Source of the DNA: Methanospirillaceae archaeon
GTDB lineage: Archaea; Halobacteriota; Methanomicrobia; Methanomicrobiales; Methanospirillaceae
Reading direction: 5' to 3'
DNA length: 64,000 bases
Assembly: GCA_016926505.1 (NCBI GenBank)
Contig: JAFGOM010000009.1
Coordinates: 2,805 to 66,804, forward strand
Shown here: positions 44,972 to 62,897 of the stretch, piece after piece
Position numbering within the stretch: the stretch's first letter is position 1
Layout of the letters: the number at the start of each line of letters is the position of its first letter
Notes under the pieces: model-generated
The model's database searches: none
Told to the model about the DNA's origin: nothing
Seen by the model: only the letters and a program-made list of their open reading frames with translations
Program-made: the position numbers and the translations under genes

Positions 44972-45545
44972 ACAACTACGACAAGATATTATGAGCAGTC
45001 CACCCCGGATCAGTGTGTACCGGGAGATGCCGTTTGCTATCTTCAGATACAATCCGGAAGATGAATGGACGCTCCGATCAGAAACACAAAATCTCGCGAT
45101 CCAACTTCGGAATGCCGGGAAAAATGTGGTCCTATTTTCGATGGAGACGATTCTCTGGGAAATTCTTGAGAAGATAGAAGAGGAGAACCCGGGAGAAGGG
45201 AGACTCGGGGGGCTTATCGACCAGGAGAAGTTTGAGGGGTTTTCTAATATGCAAGAGCAGATGGTGACCTACCTTTCAGATGAAGAGTACTGTCCGCTTT
45301 CGTCCTACATCGAGAAGAAACTTAACGCTTTAAATCCGAAACAGGATATCGGGTTTCTGGTGCATGTCGGGGCACTGGCTCCCCACTTTTACCAGGTCTC
45401 AAAACTGCTGGATGAACTCCAGGGACGGGTTGCCGTCACGACGATTCTCTTTTATCCTGGATCGCTCGAAGAACCGCATGGACTTCGGTTTATGGATATG
45501 CATGATCGTCCTGCTACCGGGGGATACCGGGTGAAGATATACTGA
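44946..45545 (+). CDS. brxB: BREX protein BrxB (DUF1788-like)
   Basis: 'PFAIFRYNPEDEW..L......L...G..V' is the characteristic DUF1788 N-terminus. Second position in the operon. Confidence 0.7.
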   Translation: MSSLTGRIEQLRQDIMSSPPRISVYREMPFAIFRYNPEDEWTLRSETQNLAIQLRNAGKNVVLFSMETILWEILEKIEEENPGEGRLGGLIDQEKFEGFSNMQEQMVTYLSDEEYCPLSSYIEKKLNALNPKQDIGFLVHVGALAPHFYQVSKLLDELQGRVAVTTILFYPGSLEEPHGLRFMDMHDRPATGGYRVKIY

Positions 45546-45549
45546 TACT

Positions 45550-48500
45550 ATGACACTTATTCGAGATATATTAGAACGGGATCTGAATCAGAAGATCGCC
45601 GAGATTATCAAGGTGAATCAGGCTGATGAAGAGACCGTATTTGAAGAGATTACTGAATATGTGGTGACCGATAATATCAGGAAACAGTATTTGGCGGTTC
45701 TGGAAGCGATCTCAAAAGGACCGCAAACTCATCAGACTGATGAGAATATTGGTATCTGGGTGTCTGGTTTCTTTGGGTCAGGTAAATCTTCTTTTGCGAA
45801 GATTCTCGGGTATATCTTAAAAAACCCATCAATTCACGGGAGCTCTGCCAGTGCTCTCTTTAAAGATCAGATCAAGGATGTCCGGGTAAGTGAATATCTG
45901 GATTATATCAATGCAGGTATTCCGACCGATGTGATTATGTTTGATATCTCAACCGATCGGCTGGTCAGGCATGGAGGGCTTGAACCGATAGCTGAGATAA
46001 TGTATCGCAAGCTCCTTGAGTATCTCGGGTATTCTACCGATTTTGATATCGCAGAGCTGGAGATTCAGCTTGAGGAGGAAGAAACAATGGATACGTTCCT
46101 CTCGCTGTTTGCGTCGCTCTATCCTGATACCACCTGGGAGAAAGCCAGAATTGGTGCGACGAAACTCAACCGGGCGAGTGCGACCCTGTATCAGATGGAG
46201 CCGCAGACCTTCCCGACCCCTGCGACCTGGGCTGAGTCGGTGAAGACCCGTCAGGCTGAATTAACAGTGAATAAGATCGTGAGCCGGATTTTTGATCTTC
46301 CTTCCCGAAGGATGCCAGGGAAGGCAATTGTCTTTGTGATAGATGAGGTTGGTCAGTATGTTGCCCGCAGTTCTGATAAAATTGAAGATCTTCGAGCTCT
46401 CGTGGAACAGGTCGGAAAAGAAGGGAAAGCCCGGCTGAAAGAGCGAAAGATACCTGCTCCAATCTGGCTGGTTGTCACCTCGCAAGAGAAACTCAATGAG
46501 GTGATTGCTGCTATTGATAGTAAGAATGTGCAGATTGCCCGGCTGCAGGACCGGTTTGCGTACAAGGTGGATCTCTCCCCTGCTGATATCAGGGAGGTTG
46601 CAAGCCGGAGGGTGCTCTCGAAGAAGAAGGAGGCAGTTCCGGTTCTTCAGACTATGTACCAGCAGTCTGAAGGACGGCTTATTGCACAGTGTTCCCTTGA
46701 GCGGTCCGGTATTGCGACAACGATATCAGCTGATACCTTTGTTGAATCGTATCCATATCTGCCCTACATGATCGATCTCTCCATTCGGCTGATGTCTGCG
46801 ATTCGGCTGCAGTCTGGAGCGGTGAAACATCAGGGAGGAGCGAACCGGACGATCATCAAGCAGGCGTATGAGATGCTGGTCTCTGAACGGACCCGGCTTG
46901 CAGATGCTCCGGTTGGCCGGCTCGTGACCCTTGATCTTATCTATGAACTAGTAGAAGCGAACCTCTCGGTTGAAGGCCGGATGGATATGATGACGATCCT
47001 CTCATCATTTGAGGAGGAAGGAGATCCGGAGTGGCCGGTGCGGTCTGCGAAGGCGATCATGCTTTTGACTTTTGTGCGAGAGATTCCCCGGACACCGAAG
47101 AATATTGCATCGGTTCTGATATCAGAGGTCGGGCAGGATGCTCCGGTTGCCGAGGTGAAGGCTGCGGTGGACCGGTTGCTTGCCAAGCGGTTCATCAAAG
47201 AGACTGAAGAGGGGTATAAACTGCTCTCACAGGGTGAAAAGACCTGGGATGAGGAACGGCAGGGGCTGAAAGGGGTTATCAGACCGGCAGATCGTACTGG
47301 AATTTTGCGTGACCTGCTGGGGAAGAGTCTTACTGATCCGAAACTGAAGACATACCGGCATCAGAATCTGAAGAATTTCAAGGTCTCTTACTCGGTGGAT
47401 GGCACCCGGGTCTCTGATCCCGGCTCCATCGTGGTGTATATTGAGATCTCTGAGGACCCGGAGAAACTTGCGACCGAGATTGAGCGGGTTCAGAGTGAGA
47501 GCAGGGGCAAGGATCGGCAGTATGACATCTTCTGGGTGATGACCGCGACCCCGGAGATTGATGGGATGGTGACTGAGCTCTATGCCTCCCGCGAGATGGT
47601 CAGGAAGTACGACCAGGCACGGGCACAAAATAAGATTAATGCGATCGAGCAGGAGTGCCTTGAAGCTGAGAAGAAGGAGCAGGCCAGGTGGCAGGCCCGG
47701 CTTTCAGAGAAACTCTTCCAGTCGCTCAGTGAGGGGGTCGGGATTTTCCAGGGAGTTCGGAAGGAGAGTGCCTCTCTTGGGAAGGATCTCTCGTCAGCAT
47801 TCCCGGCCCTCTTTGGGTATGCTGCACCGATTCTCTTCCCTCATCTCTCAACCGGGGCGGTGAACCTGAAAGGGGATGAGGCCACCCGGGTGCTTCGCGA
47901 TCAGAACCTCTCCGGTCTGCCTGCAATCTTTTACGAGGGGAATGGCGGCCTCTCGCTTGTCAGGAAAGAGAATAATAATTACGTGGTCAATCCGGAAGCC
48001 CCGATTGTTGCCCTGGTGCTTGAGCCGGTCCGTCGTCAGCATGAGTACGGGGGTGAGGCAATCTCGGGGAAGTACCTTGAGCAGTACTTTGGCGGGTATG
48101 GCTTTGGCTGGGATAGTGCGGTGGTGATGATGACCCTTGCAACCCTCTTCCGGGGTGGGATGCTTGCGGTGATGCATCAGGGGACCACATACGAAAGTTA
48201 TGATGAGAAGGAGGCACAGGCGATCTTCACCACGATCCCGAAGTTTCGGAGTAGTGCGTTTATCCTCTCTGATACGAATATTCCGGTAGAGGCACTGGTG
48301 AGGCTCTCGGATCTCCATCGGGATATGACCGGGCATGAACTGGATATTGATGAGGTGAAGATTGCTGCCGGGTTTGTGGAACTGGCAAATAAGGAGTATG
48401 ACGGGGTGGTCTCACTCGTGGCAACCATCCGATCGAACAAGCTTCCGCAGCTTGAGGATGTCGAGAGTCTGAAAGTGATGCTCCAGGCGATTCGGTCTGC

Positions 48501-49206
48501 CCCTTCATCCCGGGCGGTCTGCAAGGTTCTGCAGGGGTATGATCAGTCACTCCGTCATGCACGGGACCGGTACCTGGTGGTATCACGAAAACTCACCGAT
48601 TCCTTCCTTTCGATTGTTGAAAAGGCTCGGAAACTTGTTCCGATTGCAGCACCGGCAGTTGATAATAGGGACGGAGAGCAGGTAGTTAAAGATTTGGCAG
48701 CCTTGCTTGAGTCTGATGACCTCATTGACCAGGAAGAAGAGTTAGTCAAACTTCTTACAGATGCTGAAGCTGCATACCTGAAAATGTATAAGGATGCTCA
48801 TGCTGAGCGGAACCATATCATCAAGAGTTATATTGAACTCGTGAATGGAAATCCGGATTTTGATGCACTTTCACCAGCACAGCAGGATATTGTGCATGGA
48901 GTTATCAGGCCCTATCTGTGTGAGGGGGAGGGGCTGAATGAGCAGTATGTCTGTCCGGTCTGTAAAGCAAATGTTCCTACGATTATTTCCCTCTCCCCTC
49001 GGGGTGTAGAACTTTTTGAGAAGATGAACCTGATGATCCAGAAATTTCTCATCCCCCCGGAGCGGATCAAGCAGGTGAATATCTCTACGTATCTTCCAAA
49101 TCGGATTGAAGATATGGAGTCCCTTGACCTTGCCGTTGCGGAACTGAAGGCTGAACTAGAGAAATTCCTTGATGAAGGATATACGCTCGTCTTTACCTCA
49201 CGATGA
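45550..49206 (+). CDS. brxC: BREX P-loop ATPase BrxC/PglY
   Basis: 1,218 aa. Walker A 'GFFGSGKSSFAKILGY', Walker B-like 'IVFVIDEVGQY'. Size and position are typical. Confidence 0.85.
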   Translation: MTLIRDILERDLNQKIAEIIKVNQADEETVFEEITEYVVTDNIRKQYLAVLEAISKGPQTHQTDENIGIWVSGFFGSGKSSFAKILGYILKNPSIHGSSASALFKDQIKDVRVSEYLDYINAGIPTDVIMFDISTDRLVRHGGLEPIAEIMYRKLLEYLGYSTDFDIAELEIQLEEEETMDTFLSLFASLYPDTTWEKARIGATKLNRASATLYQMEPQTFPTPATWAESVKTRQAELTVNKIVSRIFDLPSRRMPGKAIVFVIDEVGQYVARSSDKIEDLRALVEQVGKEGKARLKERKIPAPIWLVVTSQEKLNEVIAAIDSKNVQIARLQDRFAYKVDLSPADIREVASRRVLSKKKEAVPVLQTMYQQSEGRLIAQCSLERSGIATTISADTFVESYPYLPYMIDLSIRLMSAIRLQSGAVKHQGGANRTIIKQAYEMLVSERTRLADAPVGRLVTLDLIYELVEANLSVEGRMDMMTILSSFEEEGDPEWPVRSAKAIMLLTFVREIPRTPKNIASVLISEVGQDAPVAEVKAAVDRLLAKRFIKETEEGYKLLSQGEKTWDEERQGLKGVIRPADRTGILRDLLGKSLTDPKLKTYRHQNLKNFKVSYSVDGTRVSDPGSIVVYIEISEDPEKLATEIERVQSESRGKDRQYDIFWVMTATPEIDGMVTELYASREMVRKYDQARAQNKINAIEQECLEAEKKEQARWQARLSEKLFQSLSEGVGIFQGVRKESASLGKDLSSAFPALFGYAAPILFPHLSTGAVNLKGDEATRVLRDQNLSGLPAIFYEGNGGLSLVRKENNNYVVNPEAPIVALVLEPVRRQHEYGGEAISGKYLEQYFGGYGFGWDSAVVMMTLATLFRGGMLAVMHQGTTYESYDEKEAQAIFTTIPKFRSSAFILSDTNIPVEALVRLSDLHRDMTGHELDIDEVKIAAGFVELANKEYDGVVSLVATIRSNKLPQLEDVESLKVMLQAIRSAPSSRAVCKVLQGYDQSLRHARDRYLVVSRKLTDSFLSIVEKARKLVPIAAPAVDNRDGEQVVKDLAALLESDDLIDQEEELVKLLTDAEAAYLKMYKDAHAERNHIIKSYIELVNGNPDFDALSPAQQDIVHGVIRPYLCEGEGLNEQYVCPVCKANVPTIISLSPRGVELFEKMNLMIQKFLIPPERIKQVNISTYLPNRIEDMESLDLAVAELKAELEKFLDEGYTLVFTSR

Positions 49207-52200
49207 CCATGACCGATACACCGGATGTGAACAAGTCTGCACTCCATGATCTCTCCCTGACCGCCCGAAAAACCCTGACCACTGATGTCCAGGATCTTCT
49301 CGAAGGGGTGTATGGTCTCTCTGATAAAGGAGTATTTACGCCGGCAGAGAAGATCCCGGCGATCCAGGATGAACCTGAAGTTGCAGAGACCCGAAGGCTC
49401 CTTGAGCAGCTGTTTGCTGATGAGACGTCTTCAGGTATGCCTGCTCCGGAAGCATACCGGCGACTGGTAAAAGAGGTCTCGTTCACCTGGACCAACCGGC
49501 TCGTTGCTCTCCGGATGATGGAGGTCCGGGGGCTTATCAGGAAATCGCTGGAAGGGCAGGTAGATTCAAATGGGTTCCTCCGGTGGTCCGTTTCTCCGGA
49601 GCAGGCAGCGATCAAGCGAGATATGGGGGATCTCACCCTGAATAGCCGGGGAGAGACCGGGCATACCGGATTTTTATCCTCTCGGTTTGTGGTGATATCG
49701 CCGGTGAGATAGCAGTCCTCTTTGATCCAGAGAATCTTCCGTCTCGTTTATTTCCCCGGCCTCCGGCTTTGAAAGAGATGATCCTGATACTTACGCATCA
49801 GGATCTTGATTCCTCCTGGCAGGCAGAAGAGACGATCGGGTGGGTGTACCAGTACTTCAACGAGGAGGAGAAGGCTGCGGTCTTTGACCGGCTCTATAAG
49901 CAAAAAAAGAAGATCCAGGCAGAGGATATTCCGGCTGCCACCCAGCTCTTCACTCCCCGGTGGATTGTCAAATATCTGGTGCAGAATACCCTGGGGCGTC
50001 AGTGGGTACAGATGCATCCCGATACCCGGCTCGTAGAGTTTCTGGATTATCTCGTTCCCCTACAGGGAGAGGTTCCTCCGGTTCCGATGAAACCGGTCCG
50101 GGAGCTGACTCTCCTGGATCCGGCATGTGGGACGATGCATTTTGGGCTGGTGGCGTTTGATCTCTTTACCCGAATGTACGAAGAGGAACTGGAGAAGGCC
50201 GGGACTTCAGGATGGCCTGTTGCTCCTTCGATAAAGGATACCAGAGAGATTCCTTCTGCGATTATTGAGAATAATATCTGGGGGGCTGATATTGATCTTC
50301 GGGCCATCCAGCTCTCGGCATTGACGCTGTTCCTGAAAGCGAAGGCATACCATAAAGATACGAAGATCACGAAGCATCACCTGGCCCATGCCGGAGTACA
50401 GCCGATCAGCGGAGAGCATTTAGAGAAGTTTGTGCAGGATTCAGAACTGTCTCCATTATATAACCGGATTCTCCGGCAATTACTTGAAGAACTAAAACTT
50501 GCTCCGCATCTGGGGTCATTACTCAAGATCGAGGAGTCGATCACCCGGCTGGTGCAGGAGGAGAAGGACCGATTCGAGGTGAAGGGCAGGCAGATCGATC
50601 TTTCTGGGAAACCATTGGAGGGGTTTGATACAGCTGCTTTTGACGAGGTCTTCTGGGAACGGCTCGGGAATGATATCGCTAAGAAACTTCAGGAGTATGC
50701 AACGGCTCACGGGACCCTGGAAGAGAATTTTTTTGCAGGAGAGGCAGAGAAGGGGCTTCGGTTACTGGAGGTACTGAGGAGAAAGTATGATGTGGTTATT
50801 GCTAATCCTCCTTATCTCCACAATAGAGGAATGAGTATAGAAATTCGTAATTATCTTAACTCGCATTATATTAATTCCGATAAAGACCTATATAGTGCCT
50901 TCATTTATAAATTAATACAATTATCTACTCAATATTCTCGCATTGGAATGATTACTCAACAATCATTCATGTTCACTAACAATTTCGAATTATTACGCAA
51001 TTTTATTGATGAATGTGCACTTTTAGAGTCTATGATCCATTTAGGTCCACATGCATTTGTGGATATTAGTGGGGAAAAAGTCAATACAACTGCATTCATT
51101 TTAAACATTTTTGATACAAAAACTAAATATAAAAGAAATTCTTCAATTTTTTTTAGATTAATTAAAATTCAAGACCCAATTGAGAAAAAAATTAATTTTG
51201 GAAAGTTTTTTTATGATTTAAAATCCAATCACGAAAATAAGTGTTATCTCTATAGTACGATTAATTTTAATAGAATTCCTGAATCTCCTTGGATTTATTG
51301 GTTAAGTTCAGAAATATTATCTTTTTTTGATAATTATAAATTATTATCAGAAATCTCTCCCTCTCGAGTTGGGTTGCAAACAGGAGATAATTTCAGATTT
51401 TTAAAATATTGGTGGGAAATAGAAAATAGAACTACAGTCCTAAAATGGACACCATATATGAAAGGAGGAGAGTATTGTAAGTGGTACGGAAACCAAGAAT
51501 ATATTGTTAATTGGGATAATGATGGTTATGAAATTAAAAATATTGTGGATTCAAAAGGAAAAATTGCATCTAGGCCACAAAATACTGGTTATTATAAGTT
51601 AAAGGGGATAACATATGGAGATTTATCATCAACAGCATTTAATGCTAGGTTATCTCCAGGTGGATTCATTTTCGATGTAAAAGGTTCTTCCCTGTTTCCA
51701 GATAATAATTATAAATTCTTAGGATTATTAAATTCAAAGTTTTCAAATTATATTCTGTCTTCGTTGAATCCCACAGTTTCTTTCCAAGTCGGAGATCTCG
51801 CCCGTCTCCCCATCCCCGATAAAAATTCACCCCTTCTCGAATCACTCGTCGAAAACGCCATCACCCTCGCTAAGATTGACTCAGCCGAAGACGAGATCAC
51901 CTACGACTTCACGGCTCCCCCATTCGCCCCCACCCTCTCCGGCATGACCGATCTCGTGAAACAACGTCATGACCATCTCCGGGACATAGAAAATAAGATC
52001 GACGACGAAGTATATCGTCTCTACGACATCACTGACGAGGATCGGGCAGCCATCGAAACCGAAGTCGGACAGCCTCCGGCACTCCCGACCCCGACACCCG
52101 TGGATCTGGTTAATCACTGGATCGGGTATGCCATCGGGATCATCATGGGCCGGTTCATCCCCGGAGAAGAGGGAGCACTCGGGTCCGGAATCGTGGATGG

Positions 52201-52990
52201 CAAGCACATCTTCTCCCCGGAAACAGAGAAACAACTCCGGGAGCTGACCGATGCCGATGCGGTGACAGTCCTGGAAGACGGGCATCCCGATGACCTGGGA
52301 GTTAAGGTGCTCACTGCCCTGACCCTGATGCTCGGAGAGGAGACGACCACCGAGATTCTGTCGCTTTTGGGCGGGGATATGGCAATAGGAGCAGCGACGA
52401 TCCGATCATTTCTGCTGAAAGATTATTGGAAGATTCATCTCCAGTGGTATCGGAAGCGACCTATCTACTGGCTTATCCAGTCACCAAAGAAAGAATACAG
52501 CTGTTATGTCTTCCATGAGCGGATGACGTCTGATTCGCTCTTTTTGATTCAGTCGGCCCGGTATCTGGGTGGACGGATCAATGCTCTCCGGAGCAGGATC
52601 GGCGAGGTCATGGAGGCTATTCAGACTGCTGAAGGCCGGGAGCGGAAGGCTCTTGAGAAGGAGCGGGAACAGCTCGAGAAGGCCCTTGTAGATTGCGAAG
52701 AACTGGATAGTTCTCTCACCCGGATCATTCAGAAGACGGATGAGACCGGGAAGACGGTTGGATGGAAACCCGAACTCGATGACGGGGTGATCCTGAATAT
52801 GGCACCGCTCCGGGAGCTCTTCCCGTCGTGGAAAGTTGAACCGGTGAAATTCTGGAAAGAACTGGAAGAGGGGAAATACGATTGGTCATATACTGCAATG
52901 CGATACTGGCCGACGCGGGTTAGGGAGGCATGTAAGCGGAATAAGAGCTACGCGATTGCACATGGGTTGGAAGAGGAGTATGAGGGATGA
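49203..52990 (+). pseudogene. pglX: BREX N6-adenine DNA methyltransferase PglX, split by a 1-nt frameshift at about 49646-49660
   Basis: The N-terminal 169-aa ORF (49203..49712) and the 49769..52990 ORF are both PglX-like. The downstream frame is open from 49646 and reads 'AYRIFILSVCGDIAGEIAVLFDPENLPSRLFPRP...WVYQYFNEEEK...TPRWIV...ANPPY'. Confidence 0.8.
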
Positions 52991-53754
52991 AAAAATTAAT
53001 TCTATCAATTCTGACTACTCCAGGAACACTCCCTATTATGACAGGTATTATTGGATTTTTTAGTGGATATTTGCTTAATCGGCATTTTGACAGGCAGAAA
53101 GCTCTCCGAGATAAAGCCAGACAACTCGATTCTGTTTTATACTCTGATATGAGACCTGAAATTCTTGAAGTGATCAAATCTCTCGAAAAAGGCACATACA
53201 TTAAAGTAAAGGGGGAAGGAATTGATGAAATATCTATTACTGATAAAAAAATACGTGAGATGTTATTAGGTTCTAAAGTCTTTATCGAAAAATCAGGTAA
53301 ATTGGAGCTCATCTATACTCAAGATAAGGTGTTTACCAAACCCGCGAATGAAATTATCTCTTTGGTTGAACAGTTTACAAAAGAACTGAACGATTTCCTC
53401 ACATCTCTAAAGGCTATTGATACGGCCATCATTCCATCTTCTTTTGAATCGGATATTTTTCGAACCTTCAAAGTGGAACGAGAATCGGCAAAAATGAAAG
53501 AATTTTCAATGAATCTCATTTATTGTGCAATATTAGATTCTCAAAATGCATTTACAGGCGGAAGAACCTGGGTAGATGAAATGGTTCAAAATAAATTTCC
53601 TGTTCTCCAATTGTTTGTTTTTCAATATGACTCACTCAAAAGGAAATCTGAAGAACTAGCAGAAAAAAGAAATGAATTAATTGAGATATTATCAAAAATA
53701 GAAAAACAAATCTCTAAACTTCATAATCGGTTTCTGAATGAGAGATTGGTATAA
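52987..53754 (+). CDS. Hypothetical protein with an N-terminal TM helix and a C-terminal coiled coil (nested cassette gene 1)
   Basis: ATGA overlap with the pglX stop. 'LILSILTTPGTLPIMTGIIGFFSGYLL' TM segment. AT-rich. No family was recognised. Confidence 0.6.
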   Translation: MKKLILSILTTPGTLPIMTGIIGFFSGYLLNRHFDRQKALRDKARQLDSVLYSDMRPEILEVIKSLEKGTYIKVKGEGIDEISITDKKIREMLLGSKVFIEKSGKLELIYTQDKVFTKPANEIISLVEQFTKELNDFLTSLKAIDTAIIPSSFESDIFRTFKVERESAKMKEFSMNLIYCAILDSQNAFTGGRTWVDEMVQNKFPVLQLFVFQYDSLKRKSEELAEKRNELIEILSKIEKQISKLHNRFLNERLV

Positions 53755-53774
53755 AATATAAATAGTGGATTCGA

Positions 53775-54206
53775 ATGACAAAATATTCAAATTTAATTGA
53801 TGATTATAAATCCTCAGCCAAACGGCATCTAAATGGTTCGGACACACTCTTGAGAGAAAACCAGTATGAAGAATCGGCATATCTCGCAGGGTATGTATCT
53901 GAGTGCTCAATAAAGAAGATGGTTCAACTGATCTTAAAAAATGATGCTCCAATATTTCAGCATGATATTTCATTATTATCTAATCAGTTAATACAATTAA
54001 TTCAAAAGACGGCTGAATTTTCATTATCTAAATATATACCAACCCCGCAAGGAAATTTGTTCGAAGGTTCAATTAATAATTGGGATCCTGTTCTTCGGTA
54101 CAAAACTGACGGGACTATAAATGAAACAACAGCAAAAGAATGGTATCGTGAAGCTTCAGTTCACTACAATATTCTGCAGGAGATGTGGAAGGATGGATAC
54201 TCATGA
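53775..54206 (+). CDS. HEPN-like small protein with an Rx4H motif (nested cassette gene 2)
   Basis: 'AKRHL..LL....YEESAYLAGYVSECSIKK', 'HDISLL', 'WDPVLRY' and 'YREASVH' (R125..H130) match the HEPN layout. Confidence 0.55.
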   Translation: MTKYSNLIDDYKSSAKRHLNGSDTLLRENQYEESAYLAGYVSECSIKKMVQLILKNDAPIFQHDISLLSNQLIQLIQKTAEFSLSKYIPTPQGNLFEGSINNWDPVLRYKTDGTINETTAKEWYREASVHYNILQEMWKDGYS

Positions 54207-55513
54207 ATATTCACCTTGATGAAGCCCGGAATAATACTCTTACCTTTCTAAGGTCACTTCTGAAAAAGAACACGGATATTGAAAAGATTATCTTTATTGA
54301 AGATGTATTCAGCCGATTCAGAATAATATACTGGACCCAGAAGCCATATGACTTCGACAAGATAAGTGCGACTATCGAAAAAACGGCAAGACCATTCTGG
54401 TCTCAGGAATATATCAATATTTCAGTCACATCTCCAGCCTACGATCGTGAATTCTATGATCAGAGCTGGGACGAAGGAAAAGAAGATGACGAAATGGATT
54501 CTCTTCGGATACTTGAGCGGCATCGCAACCGCCGTGGATGGTTTGAACCATTCACAAAACCCCTTTGGCTCCCATTAGATCCTGGTAACCCGCGGACTCC
54601 CCCAATCATCACCTTCTACTCATTCAAAGGAGGAATTGGGAGAACCACCGGACTTGCAGCTTTCGCAATAGATCGGGCACATGCAGGAGAGAGGGTAGTA
54701 GTCCTTGATTGCGATCTGGATGCTCCAGGTATTGACCGACTTATCACCGGAGATCCTACTATCCAGGCTCCATGGGGGATTGTTGATTATCTCCTCGAAG
54801 CCCCGTTGATTGAATTACCCCTTACTGATTACAAACACCGTTGTCAGTCAGAAAAAATTACCGGGGAAGGAGAAATACTGGTTTTTCCAGCCGGCAAACT
54901 TGATGACAGATATCCGGAAAAATTAGCCCGGATCGATCTCAATCAGTCTACGGATGATTCCGATCATCCTCTGATGAGACTAATCTCCAGAATCGCAGCC
55001 GAATTAATTCCGGACTGGATTCTGATTGACGCACGAAGTGGCTTGTCTGAAATATCCGGGTTAGTTCTTTCCGATTTATCCCATCTCCTCGTATTATATG
55101 GCACCACTTCAGAGCAGAGTTGGGATGGTCTTCGATATATTATTGAAAGAGCAGGAAAAGAGAGAATAAACCGTGATACCCCACAACAACCCTGCATTAT
55201 TGTTCAGTCATTGATACCTGAAGTAAAATCAACCCCATCTGCCCAGGAATGGTTTGAGACGAGATCCCTCGATCTATTTTCAGAGATATACTACCGCGAA
55301 GACCCTGAGGATCCTTCAGAACGAGAAGAGAATTATTGGTATCTTACCGATATCAATGATGAAAAAGCCCCTCATCTCCCGGTAGGGATTACATATTCAC
55401 CCGGACTTGCCTTCTTTCATACCCTTTCTGATATTGTTCCTGACATTCGGAATAATAAAGACTTTCAGGCTTTGGTACAGAAGATCTATGATTATTTCAA
55501 ACCAGATGTATGA
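54203..55513 (+). CDS. ParA/MinD-like (SIMIBI) ATPase with a variant Walker A 'KGGIGRTT' and an N-terminal extension of about 135 aa (nested cassette gene 3)
   Basis: 'ITFYSFKGGIGRTTGLAAFA', 'VVVLDCDLDAPG', 'WILIDARSGLSE'. ATGA overlaps with both neighbours. The ORF is also open from 54185. Confidence 0.7.
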   Translation: MNIHLDEARNNTLTFLRSLLKKNTDIEKIIFIEDVFSRFRIIYWTQKPYDFDKISATIEKTARPFWSQEYINISVTSPAYDREFYDQSWDEGKEDDEMDSLRILERHRNRRGWFEPFTKPLWLPLDPGNPRTPPIITFYSFKGGIGRTTGLAAFAIDRAHAGERVVVLDCDLDAPGIDRLITGDPTIQAPWGIVDYLLEAPLIELPLTDYKHRCQSEKITGEGEILVFPAGKLDDRYPEKLARIDLNQSTDDSDHPLMRLISRIAAELIPDWILIDARSGLSEISGLVLSDLSHLLVLYGTTSEQSWDGLRYIIERAGKERINRDTPQQPCIIVQSLIPEVKSTPSAQEWFETRSLDLFSEIYYREDPEDPSEREENYWYLTDINDEKAPHLPVGITYSPGLAFFHTLSDIVPDIRNNKDFQALVQKIYDYFKPDV

Positions 55514-57006
55514 CATTAACACAGGAACAGCAAAGATCTCTCATCCATGACGTATCATCCCTGGATAGCCACGGGCACGGAGATATGGAAGATAAAGAGA
55601 ATTTCCTCAGATATTTTTATCCGGTTCCTGCTCATATCCGTGGCTTTGATCCTGAAGTCGTCATTATCCTTGGAAAGCGAGGGGTTGGGAAATCTGCATT
55701 ATATGAAGCGGTAACAACCCATAGGTTAATTTCAGTGATTTCACGTTTTTCTCCACAGCAACGAATTCAGCAAGCCTCATTATCAAAGACCTCTTGGTGC
55801 AAGGGATATAATCCACAAAAAAGGTTTCCTGACCCACAGGTAATATTTAAGATATTTGAAAAAGACTGGAATGGGCGCATTATTGAACAGATTTTCTGGC
55901 ATTGTTACCTTCTTCGTGAATTATCTGATAACTTACCAGAAGTCGATAAAAACTCTTTAGAATTGATAATATCAGGGGAAAATTATGAGCCCCTTAAAAT
56001 TATAGAAGCATTTATTGCAGCTGGGGAGTTTCCATATTACGCATTAGATCGTCTTGATCAATCACTCGAAAAAGAAGGGCGATTTATCTATATTGCATAC
56101 GATGCGTTAGATTCTTTAGGAATCGAACAATGGGAATTGCATCGCCGATTAATATCAGGTCTCATTTCATTTTGGGCAAAACAGAGCAGGAGGTGGTCCA
56201 ATATCCGTGCAAAAATCTTTATTCGGACTGATCTCTATGAACGCTATCTGCAGATCGGAGAACCAGATGTAATTAAACTCGCAGCGAATAGAGTGGAGAT
56301 AACATGGCTGCCTCATCACCTCTATGCAATGTTGATTAAACGTATTGCAAATATCAATCCATCTTCATTAGCATATTGTCAGGACGCAGGAATTCACTTT
56401 AAAAAAGATAATGTCCTTGGTCATATCCCCCAAATCTCTTCACTAGATGATGCCGATTTGTTTATTACAAGGTTTATCGGGCAATATATGGGTTCTGATA
56501 ATAGAAAGGGAAAGACGAATACTTGGATACTAAATCATCTACAGGATGGCAAAAAAAATGCCAATCCACGACCTTTAATAAGATTGATCGGTAAAAGTGC
56601 GACTGCTCAAAAAGATAGTACCTTACCATCTCCTCCCCATCTTATTTCGCCGGTAACAATCCGAAGAGAATTAGACCAAATATCTGTCGAAGAGATCATG
56701 AGCGCTCAGAGTGAGTGGCCATGGATTAATGACCTTAAACAGAAACTTGAAGGAAAACAGATCCCTATGGAGGAAAAAGATCTGGAACAGATTATTACGA
56801 AATTATTTAGAACTGAATGGAAAGAGGGATCGAAAAACAGGCCACCTTCTGATAATCCATCTGCATTCATTGAGTATCTCGATAAACTTGGATTAATTAA
56901 GGAGAGGCCTGACAAGAGAATAGATGTTACTGATTTATATCGTGCGGGACTTGGCTTAAAACGAAAAGGCGGAGTTAGAAAAAACTCCCCTTCAAAGAAG
57001 AAATAA
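55510..57006 (+). CDS. P-loop NTPase of unknown family (nested cassette gene 4)
   Basis: Walker A 'ILGKRGVGKSALYEAV', Walker B 'FIYIAYDALD', then 'KIFIRTDLY'. Basic C-terminal tail. Confidence 0.7.
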   Translation: MTLTQEQQRSLIHDVSSLDSHGHGDMEDKENFLRYFYPVPAHIRGFDPEVVIILGKRGVGKSALYEAVTTHRLISVISRFSPQQRIQQASLSKTSWCKGYNPQKRFPDPQVIFKIFEKDWNGRIIEQIFWHCYLLRELSDNLPEVDKNSLELIISGENYEPLKIIEAFIAAGEFPYYALDRLDQSLEKEGRFIYIAYDALDSLGIEQWELHRRLISGLISFWAKQSRRWSNIRAKIFIRTDLYERYLQIGEPDVIKLAANRVEITWLPHHLYAMLIKRIANINPSSLAYCQDAGIHFKKDNVLGHIPQISSLDDADLFITRFIGQYMGSDNRKGKTNTWILNHLQDGKKNANPRPLIRLIGKSATAQKDSTLPSPPHLISPVTIRRELDQISVEEIMSAQSEWPWINDLKQKLEGKQIPMEEKDLEQIITKLFRTEWKEGSKNRPPSDNPSAFIEYLDKLGLIKERPDKRIDVTDLYRAGLGLKRKGGVRKNSPSKKK

Positions 57007-57039
57007 TCCGATTTTCCTCTCAAATATCATCCAAAAGAT

Positions 57040-58137
57040 ATGGAATCCCCTAGAATCCCCTCTGATTATCCCACCTTCCTCACCGACCTGAAGAACCGTA
57101 TCCGCCAGGCCCAACTCAAAGCCACAATATCAGTAAACCGGGAACTCATTCTCCTCTACTGGCAGATCGGCAAAGATATTCTCACCAATCAGGAGATACT
57201 CGGCTGGGGAGCAAAGGTCATCGACCAACTTTCCCAGGATCTCCGCACAGAGTTCCCTGATATGAAAGGTTTCTCGGTCAGAAACCTCAAGTATATGCAG
57301 GCTTTTGCTGCCACTTATCCAGACCCTGAATTTGTGCAGCAGGTTGCTGCACAATTGCCCTGGTTCCATATCTGTCTCCTCATAACCAGAATAAAAAACC
57401 CTAATGAACGGTTGTTTTACCTGAATCAGGCCATCGAACATGGGTGGAGCAGGAGCATTCTTACTCATCAGATTGATCTCAACCTCTATGATCGTCAGGG
57501 GAAAGCCATCACAAATTTCTCCCATACGCTCCGTTCCCCAGCATCAGATCTGGCTCGAGAGACTCTGAAAGATCCCTATATCTTCGATTTCCTGACGCTC
57601 TCTGAAGAAGCACAGGAAAGGGACCTTGAAGATGCCCTCATCTCTCATATTCAGCAATTCCTGCTCGAACTCGGCATCGGATTTGCGTTTCTTGGAAGAC
57701 AATATCCCCTAACCGTTGGAGATCAAGATTTTTATCTCGACCTCCTCTTCTATCATACCCGTCTCCACTGCTACGTGGTCATTGAACTCAAGGCTCATGA
57801 ATTCAAACCGGAATGTGCAGGAAAATTAAATTTCTACCTCTCTGCAGTGGATGATCTCATAAGGCAGGAAGGAGACAACCCTACCATCGGGATTCTCCTG
57901 TGTCGTGAGAAGAACCGGGCGATTGCAGAATATGCCCTGCGGGATATCCAGAAACCCATCGGAGTATCAGAGTATCAATTGACCAGGGCATTGTCTGAAG
58001 ACCTGAAAGAACGACTTCCGAGTGTTGAAGAAATTGAAAAGACATTGGAAGAGATTGAACTGAAGACAATGTCATCAATGTCTGGAGAAATTGAGATTAA
58101 CTATAAGGATGGGACAAAATATCATGAAAAATTCTAA
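57040..58137 (+). CDS. DUF1016/YhcG-family PD-(D/E)xK nuclease
   Basis: N-terminal 'I..AQ.KA..SVNRELILLYWQIGKDIL' and 'FSVRNLKYMQAF'. C-terminal nuclease core 'DLLFYHTRLHCYVVIELK'. Confidence 0.8.
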   Translation: MESPRIPSDYPTFLTDLKNRIRQAQLKATISVNRELILLYWQIGKDILTNQEILGWGAKVIDQLSQDLRTEFPDMKGFSVRNLKYMQAFAATYPDPEFVQQVAAQLPWFHICLLITRIKNPNERLFYLNQAIEHGWSRSILTHQIDLNLYDRQGKAITNFSHTLRSPASDLARETLKDPYIFDFLTLSEEAQERDLEDALISHIQQFLLELGIGFAFLGRQYPLTVGDQDFYLDLLFYHTRLHCYVVIELKAHEFKPECAGKLNFYLSAVDDLIRQEGDNPTIGILLCREKNRAIAEYALRDIQKPIGVSEYQLTRALSEDLKERLPSVEEIEKTLEEIELKTMSSMSGEIEINYKDGTKYHEKF

Positions 58138-58168
58138 CACAGTTGCACGTAACCTTCGGTGACCCACT

Positions 58169-60751
58169 ATGCCAACCGCAACAGAATACCTTAAAACCCA
58201 GATAACCTCAAGCCTCAAGAACCATCACCTGGTTGTCCTCTTTGATCCCGAGAAACACTACTCAGATATTATCAAAAACCTGGACCTGAACGGGATACCC
58301 ATTCATACCTATACCGGTTCATTCATCGAACTCCGGAAAGAGATAGCCGGACTCATGACAGGGGAGAAACCACCCGATCTCCTCCTCTACATTCCGATGG
58401 CTGAAAAGGATTCCAACAATGCACTCATCGGCTTCACCAAACCGGGTGTCACCCTCCAGCCCGGTCAGCACCCCTGGGAACGAAACACCCGGCTATCGGT
58501 TATTGCTCGACAGGTTCTGAAGAACCATCTGTCAGAACAGGAGATGAGTGATATTGAAGCAAAGATCGAGGCAGGAAAGCTGACGCTCTCTGACATCGAT
58601 ATCATGGCTGAATCAGTCCGGCCCCCTCTCCCTGAAGCTCTCTCCCTCGTATTTCGCACGAAGTCACCACAGGAAACCCTCCTCTCATTCATCACTGATG
58701 AGAGCCGGGATAACGATCTCATAACAAAGGGACTCATCCCTGACCTGATATCAGTAATTCAGACCACAACCGGATATACTCCGGGAGATGATCAACCAGA
58801 GACCATCAGACCAAATCTCATCAAATATCTCCTGTTCTCTGCGTTCATCAGTGAGATTGGAGAAACTCCGTCAGAACTCGTAAAGGTTCCTCATACAGAA
58901 GGTAAAGAACTCCAGGATATCTGCAGGGATATCATCTACTCCTGGCAGAGCCGACGGAAAACCGCAGCTCTCTATGAGCAATACGCACGAAATATCGAGA
59001 ATACCCTCCATCTCTCAAACCTGACCATTTCATCTGAACAACTCACCGTGAGCCGTGTATTCCCCGGAACCGAAAAGAAACTCATCGCTCTTGCAGAAGA
59101 GGCATGTTTGTCAGGAACCATTGCTGACCTCGATATTAAAACCCTGGCAAGCGATCGCCTTCACCTATACTGGTCACAGCAGGATCCGGTCATCAGTTTC
59201 AGATGGAAGATTCTGGAAGAGATCAGCCAGTTTACCTCCCTCTCAAAAGAGATCGAGACAAAAATCAGAGAAAAAGTATGGCAGGCTCAGGATCTCATCT
59301 CTGCCTATATCAACCCGCAGCAGGGATGGTATCACCTTGACACCCTCCATCGAACCATACTCAAACACCAGTATGATGACACCCTGGACTCCGGGTGGCA
59401 GGATGACTTCCTGGATCGCATCATCGGAAAAGTGCAGAAGCAGTACTCGACCACTGCCGACCTGATGACCAATGCCCTCACGCTTGCAATCGCCCAGGAA
59501 GGAACCCGGCAGATAACCAGTCCGATGCAGACCAGAACCTTCTCCTCATATGTGAGGCAGGATGAAAACCCTGGAAAGACTGCATATATCCTCGTCGATG
59601 CATTCCGATACGAGATGGGAGTTGCTCTTCAGGAGGTACTCAGTGGCACACATGAACTCTACGCAACCATTGGAACCCTCCCCTCGTACACTCCGGTGGG
59701 AATGGCCGCCCTCATGCCAAACGCGGAAAAAGAGTTTGCCATTATCGCATCACCACAAGGAGGGCTGACTTCGCTCGTTCATGGTACGCCGCTGACTACC
59801 CGGGAAGAACGGATTACGTACCTCAGAGACCAGGTAACCAGTGACCTCCTCGCTTGCAAACTCTCTGATCTCTTCCCCAGGCCGAAGAAAAAGATAGAAG
59901 ACCAGATCAGGAGTAGTCCATTCATCCTCATCACCTCCCTGGAGATCGATGCAGCAGGGGAACAATTAGAACCGCATCTCGCCAGGCAGAGTATGGATGA
60001 GATCATCCGCTATCTGAAACGGGTCATCTCACACCTCACCCGCCTCGGTGTTACCCGGATTGTGATCACTGCCGATCATGGGTACCTCTTTGGGGAGGAA
60101 CTCACCGAGGCAATGAAGATAGATCCCCCAAGCGGTCAGACTATCGCAATACATCGCCGGTTCTGGGCAGGAACCGGAGGAGACGCTCGCGACTCCTATG
60201 TTCGGATACGACCTGAAATGGTAGGAGTGAAGAGCGATCTCGAGTTTGCCTACCCTGCAGGTATCGGGGCATTCAAAGCAAAAGGAGGAGGAACCGCCTA
60301 TCACCATGGGGGAATATCTCTTCAGGAACTAATCATTCCTGTTCTCGTTATCGAACATACCGGCCAGGTCCTTTCATCAGATTCAAGTATCTCCTGGTCA
60401 CTTGCAATCAGCGGAGACAAAATATCCAGTCGGATGGTTTCAGTAAAGATCAACGGGACGATCACGAGTATCACCTGCGACCAGGTCCCGAAAGTCAGAG
60501 TAGAGATCCGGTCAGGAGATCTGACAATATCAAACCCGCTGACCGCTCATTATGACTACCGGGAAGCAACAGGTGACATAAGCATGAGGATAAACCATGA
60601 CCCGGCGAAAAACCGAAGTCTTGAGGAGAACACCGCAATAATGCAGGTACATACCATCCCGAAAGGTCAGGCAACCATCCATCTTCTTGACAGCGAGACC
60701 GACGTAGAGCTCACAAAAATAGGTCCATTCCCCGTAGACATCAGCTTTTAG
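58169..60751 (+). CDS. pglZ: BREX alkaline-phosphatase-superfamily protein PglZ
   Basis: 860 aa. 'AYILVDAFRYEMG', 'ITADHGYLF', 'YHHGGISLQELIIPV'. Confidence 0.85.
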   Translation: MPTATEYLKTQITSSLKNHHLVVLFDPEKHYSDIIKNLDLNGIPIHTYTGSFIELRKEIAGLMTGEKPPDLLLYIPMAEKDSNNALIGFTKPGVTLQPGQHPWERNTRLSVIARQVLKNHLSEQEMSDIEAKIEAGKLTLSDIDIMAESVRPPLPEALSLVFRTKSPQETLLSFITDESRDNDLITKGLIPDLISVIQTTTGYTPGDDQPETIRPNLIKYLLFSAFISEIGETPSELVKVPHTEGKELQDICRDIIYSWQSRRKTAALYEQYARNIENTLHLSNLTISSEQLTVSRVFPGTEKKLIALAEEACLSGTIADLDIKTLASDRLHLYWSQQDPVISFRWKILEEISQFTSLSKEIETKIREKVWQAQDLISAYINPQQGWYHLDTLHRTILKHQYDDTLDSGWQDDFLDRIIGKVQKQYSTTADLMTNALTLAIAQEGTRQITSPMQTRTFSSYVRQDENPGKTAYILVDAFRYEMGVALQEVLSGTHELYATIGTLPSYTPVGMAALMPNAEKEFAIIASPQGGLTSLVHGTPLTTREERITYLRDQVTSDLLACKLSDLFPRPKKKIEDQIRSSPFILITSLEIDAAGEQLEPHLARQSMDEIIRYLKRVISHLTRLGVTRIVITADHGYLFGEELTEAMKIDPPSGQTIAIHRRFWAGTGGDARDSYVRIRPEMVGVKSDLEFAYPAGIGAFKAKGGGTAYHHGGISLQELIIPVLVIEHTGQVLSSDSSISWSLAISGDKISSRMVSVKINGTITSITCDQVPKVRVEIRSGDLTISNPLTAHYDYREATGDISMRINHDPAKNRSLEENTAIMQVHTIPKGQATIHLLDSETDVELTKIGPFPVDISF

Positions 60752-60759
60752 GTGAACTC

Positions 60760-62802
60760 ATGGAACCACTTGTAAAAGACGAACTGGATAAGAAAGCAAC
60801 CAAAGTATTTGCAGGGAGAGTCGTCAGAAAAGACCTGGTTCGGAATGTAAAAGTAGGAGCCAATGTTCCGGTTTTTGTCCTGGAATTTCTCCTCGGTACC
60901 TATTGTGCCAGTGACGATCAGGTTGCCATAGATGCCGGCCTGAAGATAGTAAACTCAACCCTCTCTGAGAACTTCGTCCGTCCTGACGAATCCACCAAAG
61001 CCCAATCCCTTGTCCGGGAACGGGGCAAGCACATGATCATCGATAAAATAAAGGTGCGGTACGATTCAGAAGAGGATAAGTACTGGGCTGAACTGGTTAA
61101 TTTCAGCCATAAATATGTGCATATTCCGGAGAAGTACGTCATCCAGTTTGATCGTCTGCTCCTTGGGGGAATCTGGGCTCAGGTCACCATCCGGCATATG
61201 TATGACGAGGAGGCTACCGGGAAGAAGAGCCCGTTCTGGATAGATAATATAAAACCGATCCAGTTGGCCTCGTTCAATCTTGATGAGTATAAAGAAGGAA
61301 GGAAAGCATTCACCACTGATGAGTGGATAGATTTCCTCATTCGCAGTCTCGGGATGCAGCCATCAGAATTTAACCGGCGGCTGAAGATGCTCTATCTACT
61401 CAGGCTGGTTCCGTTCTGTGAGCATAACTATAATCTCATCGAACTCGGACCCAGGGGGACCGGAAAATCCTACGCATACCAGGAGATCTCCCCTTATGGG
61501 ATTCTTCTCACCGGACCGACCACGGTTGCAAACCTCTTCTATAACATGGGAACCGGGAAGATGGGGCTCATTGGCCTTTGGGATGTAGTTGCATTTGACG
61601 AGGTTGCTGATCTGCAAAAAATGCCTAAAGAGATCATCACAATGCTCAAGACCTATTGTGAGTCTGGATCTTTTGCACGCGGCCGGGAACAACTAGCAGC
61701 ATATGCATCCCTTGCCATGTTCGGCAATACGAACCAACCGATTGATGTCATGGTGAAATCATCTCATCTCTTTATGCCGCTGCCTGATATCATCCGAACC
61801 GATATGGCATTCATCGACCGGATTCATTCCTATCTTCCTGGATGGGAGATCCCAAAGATGCAAACCCGGTTCTTTACCAGCAATTACGGGTTTGTCGTTG
61901 ATTACTTAGCCGAGGCTATCCGGGATCTTCGCAAATATAATTTCACTGATGTTATCGATCAATACTTCTCATTTGGAACCCATCTAAACGCTCGTGATGT
62001 AAAAGCAGTCAGAAGAACCGTCTCAGGAATGATGAAACTCCTCTACCCTCATAGTGAATATACCAAAGAGGAACTCGCCGAGGTTCTGGAGCTCTCACTT
62101 GAATGCCGGAGAAGGGTGAAGGAACAACTCAAGAAGATGGGATCGTTTGAGTACTATCAGACTTCATTCTCTTATATTGACAACGAAACTCGAGCAGAAG
62201 TATATGTCGGTGTTCCGGAAGAAGGAGGACGGGGACTGATATCTCCGGACCCACTCGCTCCTGGATCGGTATATTGTGCATCGGTTGACACCGAAGGAAA
62301 AGTCGGTCTTTACCGGATAGAAGTGGGGATGAGTGCCGGAACCGGAAAACTCAAATTTCGTGGAGGAATTGCAGGAAGTATGAAAGAGTCAATTCAGCGG
62401 GCTTTTTCATACATCGAGAGTCATAAAGTTTCGATGGGAATCGGCCAGGAGTTTGATACCTCAGATTTCCATGTCGAGGCAATTGACCTATTAAGTAACC
62501 GCATCCCGGCAGATTCTGGAGTTGCATTCATCACCGCTGTTTATTCAGCAATCAGATCTCATCCGGTCCGACCAGGAGTTGTCATACTTGGTGATATCAG
62601 TATTCAAGGGAACATCAAACCGTTATCTTCACTCATTGAGGTTCTCCAGAATACCATGGATAACGGAGGAAAGTCAGCAATTATTCCGTTAGAAAATAAG
62701 CGGATGTTTCTTGAAGTGTCCGGTGATATTCTCGAGCAGGTAGATCCGATTTTTTATGGAGATCCGATAACAGCGGCAATGAAAGCGTTAGGGTTGCATT
62801 AG
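60760..62802 (+). CDS. brxL: BREX Lon-like protease BrxL
   Basis: 680 aa. AAA-like 'IELGPRGTGKSY', 'VAFDEV', and a C-terminal Lon protease-like domain. Terminal position in the operon. Confidence 0.85.
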   Translation: MEPLVKDELDKKATKVFAGRVVRKDLVRNVKVGANVPVFVLEFLLGTYCASDDQVAIDAGLKIVNSTLSENFVRPDESTKAQSLVRERGKHMIIDKIKVRYDSEEDKYWAELVNFSHKYVHIPEKYVIQFDRLLLGGIWAQVTIRHMYDEEATGKKSPFWIDNIKPIQLASFNLDEYKEGRKAFTTDEWIDFLIRSLGMQPSEFNRRLKMLYLLRLVPFCEHNYNLIELGPRGTGKSYAYQEISPYGILLTGPTTVANLFYNMGTGKMGLIGLWDVVAFDEVADLQKMPKEIITMLKTYCESGSFARGREQLAAYASLAMFGNTNQPIDVMVKSSHLFMPLPDIIRTDMAFIDRIHSYLPGWEIPKMQTRFFTSNYGFVVDYLAEAIRDLRKYNFTDVIDQYFSFGTHLNARDVKAVRRTVSGMMKLLYPHSEYTKEELAEVLELSLECRRRVKEQLKKMGSFEYYQTSFSYIDNETRAEVYVGVPEEGGRGLISPDPLAPGSVYCASVDTEGKVGLYRIEVGMSAGTGKLKFRGGIAGSMKESIQRAFSYIESHKVSMGIGQEFDTSDFHVEAIDLLSNRIPADSGVAFITAVYSAIRSHPVRPGVVILGDISIQGNIKPLSSLIEVLQNTMDNGGKSAIIPLENKRMFLEVSGDILEQVDPIFYGDPITAAMKALGLH

Positions 62803-62897
62803 ATGGGGATGAATTCACACAGTGGGCTCACTACTCAATATAAAAGTACATATTACCTGCTGACATCAGATACCCTTTTGTCATGAAAAAACTGTTC

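Follow-up and report, generated by a model that had tools for sequence, protein, structure and literature searches.

This work concerns three consecutive genes, here called A, B and C, in a 64,000-nucleotide (nt) stretch of DNA (the window; forward strand, positions 2,805 to 66,804 of contig JAFGOM010000009.1, assembly GCA_016926505.1) from a Methanospirillaceae archaeon. As outlined below, gene A encodes a HEPN-like protein, gene B a ParA-like ATPase with arginine in place of the P-loop lysine, and gene C an ORC/Cdc6-like ATPase. The trio is almost certainly the cassette known as HINPO or PDC-M28, and for this identity together with a role as an anti-invader module we estimate a probability of about 0.7.

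Gene organization of the cassette

The features of the three genes, with lengths in amino acids (aa), are as follows:

53775–54206, + strand: gene A, 143-aa HEPN-like protein (PDC-M28A; 'PA-HEPN1' of HINPO)
54203–55513, + strand: gene B, 436 aa, N-terminal α/β domain and Arg-P-loop ParA-like ATPase (PDC-M28B; NF047398)
54203–54547, + strand: N-terminal domain of gene B, residues 1–115, from the AlphaFold2 model
54620–54649, + strand: deviant Walker A of gene B, residues 140–149, S-F-K-G-G-I-G-R-T-T
54695–54730, + strand: sensor/A' motif of gene B, V-V-V-L-D169-C-D171-L-D-A-P175-G176
55016–55042, + strand: Walker B of gene B, W-I-L-I-D276-A-R278-S-G
55510–57006, + strand: gene C, 498-aa ORC/Cdc6/STAND-clade AAA+ ATPase (PDC-M28C; NF047389)

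Neighbouring genes share four nucleotides at both junctions: the ATG of gene B (54203) overlaps the stop codon of gene A (ctcATGAat), and the ATG of gene C overlaps the stop codon of gene B at 55510–55513 (gtATGAca). These ATGA overlaps indicate that the three genes are translationally coupled. PADLOC reported PDC-M28A (E = 1.4e-10), PDC-M28B (2.2e-56) and PDC-M28C (4.1e-67) consecutively, in order and on one strand, the matches of B and C extending over the full profile.

The arginine P-loop and the ParA core of gene B

The translation of gene B contains …YSFKGGIGRTTGLAAF…, and its Walker A motif reads S140-F-K142-G-G-I-G-R147-T-T149. Thereby, the signature lysine K142 (AAA, 54626–54628) is kept and the P-loop lysine is replaced by R147 (AGA, 54641–54643). 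An earlier sequence-only reading of this DNA had pointed to this arginine and the retained signature lysine, as well as to the Walker A' segment VVVLDCDLDAPG (residues 165–176) and the Walker B segment WILIDARSG (residues 272–280), and translation confirmed all of them, for the Walker A motif down to the codons.

For the analysis of residue conservation the best 118 full-length homologues (38–46% identity, ~99% coverage) were selected from several hundred relatives in a large protein collection. R147 is present in 118/118 and K142 in 117/118 of the sequences; G143, G144, G146 and T149 are each found in all 118, as is serine or threonine at position 148. D169, D171 and P175 are likewise invariant (118/118), G176 occurs in 117/118, and in the Walker B region R278 and G280 are invariant (118/118 each) and D276 is kept in 117/118. 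The arginine is consequently a fixed character of the family and neither a singleton nor a sequencing error, the two outcomes that the sequence-only reading had named as speaking against itself. Judged from this alignment, the catalytic and dimerization elements of ParA are intact in gene B save for the P-loop lysine, which is always arginine. The DxD motif (D169/D171) provides Mg and water ligands, and the 'PG' following it (P175-G176) is the motif diagnostic of the ParA clade ConB2.

In line with these residues, the NCBIfam model NF047398 ('KGGVGR-motif variant AAA ATPase') matches residues 133–316 of gene B with 162.3 bits at a cut-off of 90. The ParA, MinD, BcsQ and NifH models reach 11–25 bits on the P-loop region alone, for instance 21 bits for NF041546 (ParA_partition, cut-off 180) and 21–25 bits for the MinD models TIGR01968 and TIGR01969 (cut-offs >200). 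The suggestion in the sequence-only reading that a KGGxGR variant family is tied to conflict loci is borne out by the NF047398 match and by ConB2, a clade defined by arginine replacing the P-loop lysine plus PG after DxD and linked to conflict systems (10.64898/2026.10.19.760177).

The AlphaFold2 model of gene B, calculated from the 118-sequence alignment, has a mean predicted local distance difference test score (pLDDT) of 93.6 and a predicted template modelling score (pTM) of 0.91. A Foldseek search of the model against the Protein Data Bank (PDB) retrieved ParA, Soj, MinD, FlhG, FleN, McdA and BcsQ with target-normalised template modelling (TM) scores of ~0.7. By its fold the core of gene B is a ParA/MinD-type SIMIBI ATPase, as had been proposed from the sequence. 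The preservation of K142, the DxD motif and Walker B argues that gene B would bind nucleotide and form a sandwich dimer. In other P-loop proteins, mutation of the P-loop lysine to arginine usually leaves nucleotide binding in place and slows hydrolysis, which would favour a long-lived 'latch' dimer for gene B.

The N-terminal domain of gene B

Residues 1–115 of gene B form a separate α/β domain with the order α1(5–22), β1(26–33), β2(39–45), α2(52–62), β3(66–73), α3(79–91) and β4(101–105), modelled with pLDDT values of 89–97 for residues 1–110 and 81–82 for residues 111–130. It is followed by a conserved linker rich in arginine and tryptophan (R102, R106, R108, R110, W113 and W122). The N-terminal region is kept in all homologues, D34, R106, R108, W113 and W122 being invariant or nearly so. 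Neither Pfam, queried with the full protein and with 25 isolated N-terminal domains, nor a sequence-profile search of the PDB gave a match to this domain, and Foldseek with the whole gene B model yielded ParA matches only, the ParA core dominating the result. The domain of about 135 aa that the sequence-only reading had left unassigned is thus real, conserved and unassignable by sequence; it no longer stands without an assignment, since Li, Burroughs & Aravind assigned it by structure search to an inactive Pol-beta nucleotidyltransferase (10.64898/2026.10.19.760177). In our alignment an 'LFG' motif after β1, in which G37 is found in 112/118 homologues and is serine in the window copy, resembles the nucleotidyltransferase motif hG[GS], and β2 contains no acidic residues. 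Both features would be compatible with a degenerate nucleotidyltransferase and lend this assignment slight support.

Gene A, a HEPN-like protein

Beside the PDC-M28A match given above, gene A matches the Pfam HEPN family with E = 0.005, which is under the cut-off, and the sole match of its profile in the PDB is the HEPN protein 1wol (E = 0.28). Gene A is a HEPN-like four-helix protein. Among 52 homologues H18, Y36, G39, Y40, E43, K47, H63, L68, W103, R108 and Y109 are invariant. A conserved Rx4-6H motif was not found in these sequences, R108 being invariant and positions +4 to +7 variable. R125-x4-H130 (54147–54164) was considered as a catalytic HEPN signature and rejected, as the arginine is present in 8/52 and the histidine in 1/52 homologues. 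With neither this motif nor a histidine after R108 conserved, the canonical HEPN RNase site is not a feature of the family.

Gene C, an ORC/Cdc6-like ATPase

Gene C is matched by NCBIfam NF047389 ('P-loop ATPase, Sll1717 family') with 105.3 bits at a cut-off of 75. Its Walker A motif G55-K-R-G-V-G-K61-S (55672–55695) has the invariant form G-x-R-G-x-G-K-[ST] in the homologues. The Walker B motif reads Y-D198-A199-L-D (56083–56112), compared to Y-D-E-L-D in 61/63 homologues; Ala199 is encoded by GCG (56104–56106), and the closest relative of the cassette, locus L085, likewise carries alanine. Judging by these sequences, the alanine is a lineage trait, the archaeal lineage having lost the catalytic glutamate of its ORC-like ATPase. 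At the C-terminus an invariant tail G-L-x-L-[RK]-R-K-G-G-V (56947–56976; R485-K-G-G-V489) is followed by basic residues of low pLDDT, and by its sequence this tail looks like a short docking or stimulating peptide.

The AlphaFold2 model of gene C (pLDDT 91.0, pTM 0.90) matched the N-terminal ATPase of BrxC (9zll/9zdx), archaeal Cdc6/ORC (1fnn, 1w5t, 1w5s, 2qby and 2v1u) and the Apaf-1-like Dark in Foldseek with E values of 7e-5 to 6e-3, which confirms that it belongs to the ORC/Cdc6/STAND group. A closer relationship to BrxC in particular was rejected, as the hhalign comparison with the BrxC of the window covered 19 P-loop residues at 0.7% probability.

Distribution and neighbourhoods

By scanning one genome per species, relatives were found in at least 503 species; the neighbourhood counts given here refer to the best 80 loci from other species. 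The 80 loci stem from Planctomycetota, Acidobacteriota, Myxococcota, Spirochaetia, Elusimicrobia, NC10, Proteobacteria, Omnitrophota and Methanothrix. Gene C directly follows gene B on the same strand in 80/80 loci, and gene A lies upstream of gene B in 70/80 (phmmer) or 73/80 loci (hidden Markov model). The trio is therefore a conserved, translationally coupled unit over many phyla.

Neighbour clustering and PADLOC place about 30% of the 80 loci in or beside methylation-based defence systems: the trio lies within BREX at ~11 loci, within Hma at ~9 and beside DISARM genes at 3–4, and the usual arrangement in Hma is the HmaB methylase, the trio and HmaC. As immediate neighbours we found HmaB, HmaC, PglX, PglZ, DrmMI, DrmD, mad3, AriA/HEC-01-like ATPases, Ppl, PsyrT and Schlafen/AlbA. 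No integrase or transposase family recurs among the neighbours in the 80 loci.

At three loci (L011:6559-14566, L010:2-5250 and L014:9073-17054; one planctomycete and two Desulfobacterales-like genomes), all of them BREX loci of other phyla, pglX is split and encloses the trio: the flanking open reading frames (ORFs) align to the N-terminal methyltransferase half (PglX residues 1–475/491) and to the C-terminal half (489–1008), with 4-nt overlaps. No description of a split PglX of this type was found.

The sequence-only reading had held that gene B is no housekeeping partition gene and had named a parB or centromere partner among the homologues as evidence to the contrary; no such partner was seen in the 80 loci. 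Furthermore, 20 of 72,556 plasmids gave any match at 1e-10, none of them spanning 80% of gene B, and no homologue of gene B was found in phages. A plasmid or phage origin of the cassette, considered as well, was rejected on these grounds. NF047398 scores above its cut-off in 1/41 related genomes, namely the window's own (two genomes of the same genus were included), and in 0/14 control genomes.

The closest relative of the cassette (L085:1-5177) has B and C proteins 81% and 70% identical to those of the window. Instead of PglZ, it has genes for UPF0175 (antitoxin-like), YhcG (nuclease) and an AAA_15/AAA_21 ATPase downstream, and these other neighbours indicate that the cassette moves between islands. 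In this lineage the trio may travel jointly with YhcG. Taken as a whole, the cassette is a horizontally mobile module and most probably an autonomous anti-phage or anti-plasmid system.

The host BREX operon and its cargo slot

What the sequence-only reading had called a restriction-like operon can be specified as a type 1 BREX locus with the following features:

44192–62802, + strand: host type 1 BREX operon, brxA, brxB, brxC, pglX (split), cargo, pglZ, brxL
49203–49712 and 49769–52990, + strand: pglX in two ORFs, by the NCBIfam PglX profile
52987–53754, + strand: 255-aa transmembrane/coiled-coil gene, constant left frame of the slot, outside the cassette
53755–57039, + strand: variable cargo slot, filled here by genes A-B-C, from comparison with collinear BREX loci
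57040–58137, + strand: YhcG/DUF1016 PD-(D/E)xK nuclease (PADLOC PDC-S02), right frame of the slot

Three collinear BREX loci, whose BREX proteins are 74–96% identical to those of the window, carry other genes at the position of the trio. In L087 the order is BrxA-BrxB-BrxC-PglX (intact, 1274 aa), the 255-aa gene, a 752-aa TPR protein (slot L087:9715-12014), YhcG, PglZ and BrxL. L088 and L089 show PglX, the 255-aa gene, a PIN protein of 412 or 405 aa, respectively (PIN_12/PIN_8; slots L088:1337-2596 and L089:1105-2347), YhcG, PglZ and BrxL. Nucleotide homology between the window and L087 covers 44112–50815, 51445–53754 and 57091–62810; it ends where the reading frame of the 255-aa gene stops (53754) and restarts in the start region of yhcG (57091). 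This break, together with the other genes found there in the three loci, defines 53755–57039 as a variable slot of the BREX lineage. At least three alternative cargos occur in the slot, the HINPO trio among them; being absent from L087, L088 and L089, the trio does not belong to the type 1 BREX core. The G+C content of the slot is 0.35–0.44, compared to 0.45–0.51 for most of the BREX genes (brxA 0.38). No shared junction motif, repeat or recombination site was detected at the slot borders in the alignments.

The 255-aa gene was also considered as a fourth member of the cassette and rejected: none of the 80 loci contains a homologue of it, and homologues were found only four times, each at the same position in collinear BREX loci with other cargo.

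With respect to the host system, the 169-aa N-terminal ORF of pglX covers positions 3–105 of the NCBIfam PglX profile and the 1073-aa ORF positions 200–1209. Owing to this split the BREX backbone of the locus may be inactive, the cargo genes being intact ORFs. Within pglX, the segment 50815–51445 shows no nucleotide homology to the otherwise 80–88% identical L087; it is possibly an exchanged target-recognition segment.

Discussion

The identity of the trio as the HINPO/PDC-M28 cassette is, in our view, close to certain. PDC stands for the 145 'phage defence candidates', untested, that Payne et al. (10.1101/2024.01.29.577857) defined from genes lying within BREX, DISARM and type I restriction-modification systems; PDC-M28 is their cassette CAS_00115, with three anonymous families and a count of 121, listed without domain analysis. 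In the literature, PDC-M28 occurs only in a supplementary table of this preprint. HINPO is covered in the computational survey of ParA-like NTPases in immunity by Li, Burroughs & Aravind (preprint of 22 Oct 2026, 10.64898/2026.10.19.760177), and the trio of the window fits the description of HINPO and ConB2 with its arginine P-loop, PG motif, upstream HEPN and downstream ORC-like ATPase. No experimental work on HINPO was found in the searchable literature. The kind is thus already catalogued (NCBIfam NF047398/NF047389, PADLOC PDC-M28 and the HINPO preprint), the present locus is an archaeal, BREX-embedded member of it, and its value lies in corroboration and concrete test targets rather than in discovery. 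What is added here are the counts for the invariance of the arginine, the fold support for the ParA-like and ORC-like ATPases, the equation of HINPO with PDC-M28 and the cargo-slot comparison, furthermore the split-pglX arrangement, the non-conservation of the HEPN catalytic motif and the conserved tail of gene C.

Several points weigh against the reading as an anti-invader module. The defence role of the cassette is deduced entirely from its context, and ~70% of the 80 loci lie outside methylation-based systems, which shows that embedding is not required for cassette function. Since a family-conserved Rx4-6H is missing, the role of gene A as an RNase effector is uncertain, and going by its residues the system may have no enzymatic effector. 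The presumed effect of the lysine-to-arginine exchange on ATP turnover by gene B is carried over from mutants of other P-loop proteins. Finally, with the Walker B alanine of gene C and the broken host pglX, this particular copy may work differently or be decaying.

How HINPO would act step by step can be proposed only tentatively, and we would not expect the following sequence of events to hold in full. Since its ORC/Cdc6/STAND relatives bind DNA or act as switches, gene C might sense invader DNA: it would bind this DNA, or a replication or packaging intermediate, and thereby change its ATP state. The disordered, basic tail of C (…RKGGV) could then bind to gene B as peptides of ParB and MinE bind to ParA and MinD. 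Gene B would form an ATP-sandwich dimer via K142, which with the arginine P-loop would probably be a long-lived latch and not a fast cycler. Its degenerate nucleotidyltransferase-like N-terminal domain would hold protein A or, in the view of the preprint, bind a nucleotide ligand. The switch would release or activate A, or nucleate assemblies of B on invader DNA, which would stop the infection and probably also arrest the growth of the cell.

In a more specific version, HINPO would be a guard wired to methyltransferase-based immunity and placed preferentially behind the BREX or Hma methyltransferase, at three loci within a split pglX; B would be a non-cycling, ATP-latched dimer, its degenerate MNT-like N-terminal domain would cage the non-canonical HEPN protein, and the RKGGV tail of C would take the role of the ParB/MinE stimulating peptide and trigger the switch in response to invader DNA or to inhibition of the host system. 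We consider this version a long shot; if true, a SIMIBI ATPase would here signal in immunity by a new logic.

The model preferred by Li, Burroughs & Aravind (10.64898/2026.10.19.760177) takes the ParA polymer as the effector: the ORC-like ATPase would recognise the DNA of the invader and nucleate multimeric ParA coats that block replication or transcription, and the HEPN protein would be a backup or a non-catalytic RNA- or nucleotide-binding sensor. Such an assembly on DNA remains a serious rival because gene A lacks the canonical RNase motif, which fits a non-RNase role, and 7/80 loci have no detectable gene A. The 12 invariant residues of A (2 His, 1 Arg, 1 Glu and 1 Lys among them) at 39% mean column identity, however, suggest a site for catalysis or ligand binding, the genes A and B are translationally coupled, and a slowly turning-over arginine P-loop would fit a latch better than a dynamic DNA-bound polymer. 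We judge the polymer model unlikely, while giving it more weight than the alternatives discussed below.

HEPN proteins and nucleotidyltransferases are paired classically in HepT/MntA, and the cassette could accordingly be read as a toxin–antitoxin-like stabilizer of its carrier islands, with A as the HEPN toxin, the N-terminal domain of B as a degenerate MNT-type antitoxin and the ATPases controlling turnover. The HEPN and nucleotidyltransferase-like pairing, the tight gene coupling, the patchy, mobile distribution and the UPF0175 antitoxin-like gene beside the cassette in L085 would agree with it. This addiction is nevertheless improbable: the nucleotidyltransferase-like domain has no catalytic acidic residues, gene A has no RNase motif, the HEPN-first order is the reverse of the usual antitoxin-first order, and two large NTPases would be needless for a plain toxin–antitoxin pair. 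Moreover, defence genes dominate the neighbourhood, and the lack of a recurrent transposase or integrase in the 80 loci also speaks against it.

As a further possibility, the trio could serve BREX, or methyltransferase-based defence in general, as a dedicated accessory or regulatory subunit without being autonomous; this is suggested by its position right behind the methyltransferase gene in BREX and Hma loci and within the split pglX of L010, L011 and L014, as well as by the resemblance of the gene C fold to the BrxC ATPase. We regard this as very improbable, as BREX, Hma and DISARM genes are missing from the surroundings of ~70% of the 80 loci, close BREX loci function as units without the trio and with other cargo in the slot, the closest relative L085 has a different downstream neighbour, and the sequence similarity of gene C to BrxC is limited to the P-loop (hhalign 0.7%). 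Although gene B does share fold and dimer-forming signature lysine with ParA/Soj/MinD, a standard role in the partition or positioning of a chromosome, a plasmid or cellular cargo can be practically dismissed in view of the missing ParB-like or centromere partner, the HEPN and ORC-like neighbours in 73–80/80 loci, the few and never full-length plasmid matches (20/72,556), the lack of phage matches, the absence of the gene from 40 host relatives and the replacement of the P-loop lysine that defines the housekeeping clades.

Relation to known systems

With the HINPO of the preprint (10.64898/2026.10.19.760177) the trio shares gene order and domain content, the extra N-terminal domain on ParA and the patchy spread over many phyla. 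It differs in being archaeal (Methanomicrobiales-like) and located in the cargo slot of a BREX operon, embedding of HINPO in BREX or Hma not being mentioned in the preprint's main text, and in the alanine at the Walker B glutamate of its ORC-like ATPase. Furthermore, the HEPN family found here has no conserved Rx4-6H, which weakens the reading as a 'backup RNase effector'. The 'guilt by embedding' that defines PDC-M28, with BREX, DISARM or type I restriction-modification systems as hosts, is also encountered at the locus of the window.

Compared to ParA, Soj and MinD, gene B has the same SIMIBI fold, the signature lysine for the ATP-sandwich dimer, the DxD sensor and the Walker B aspartate. 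In contrast to them, it always carries arginine in the P-loop, possesses an extra N-terminal domain, is found in defence islands and not in a plasmid or oriC context, and has no ParB, MinE or MinC partner and no Min genes adjacent. BcsQ (6yb5 among the fold matches) is a similar SIMIBI/MinD-like protein with a degenerate Walker A, and several gene B homologues are labelled 'BcsQ' in JGI annotation. In structural work on BcsRQ, this component of the cellulose secretion system is described as a nucleotide-bound dimer that serves as a stable scaffold rather than cycling as an ATPase. Its sequence relation to gene B, however, is confined to the P-loop region (23 bits, cut-off 158), its partners and biology are different, and it lacks the arginine-for-lysine signature.

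Nested second-line systems are known as PrrC in EcoprrI, BrxU and PARIS in BREX and HEC in Hma (Payne et al., 10.1101/2024.01.29.577857). Like HINPO they are autonomous, exchangeable modules within a methylation-based defence operon and are thought to back up the host system; they differ in being unrelated proteins. The type VII toxin–antitoxin system HepT/MntA resembles HINPO in that a HEPN-fold protein is encoded beside a Pol-beta-type nucleotidyltransferase-like domain. In HINPO, however, this domain has no catalytic carboxylates and is fused to ParA, the HEPN protein has no conserved Rx4-6H, and a third, ORC-like ATPase is obligatory.

The ParA clade with the arginine P-loop represents a large branch of a classic family of cell-biology ATPases that has apparently moved into immunity, and it poses a question well suited to biochemical tests: how a natural lysine-to-arginine exchange in the P-loop affects the ATP cycle. 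The slot of the window offers a natural experiment in turn: at one and the same position of a single BREX lineage lies HINPO, a gene for a TPR protein or one for a PIN protein, and this alternation speaks for HINPO as a defence module that is autonomous and can be exchanged.

Variant forms of the cassette

Two loci among the relatives deviate from separate B and C genes. In L066 (L066:10004-12202) B (residues 1–350) and C (residues 129–497) are fused into one ORF, the deletion removing the Walker A motif of C. In L073 (L073:11190-16916) a C-like ATPase is fused to an extension of ~1,400 aa with a second P-loop.

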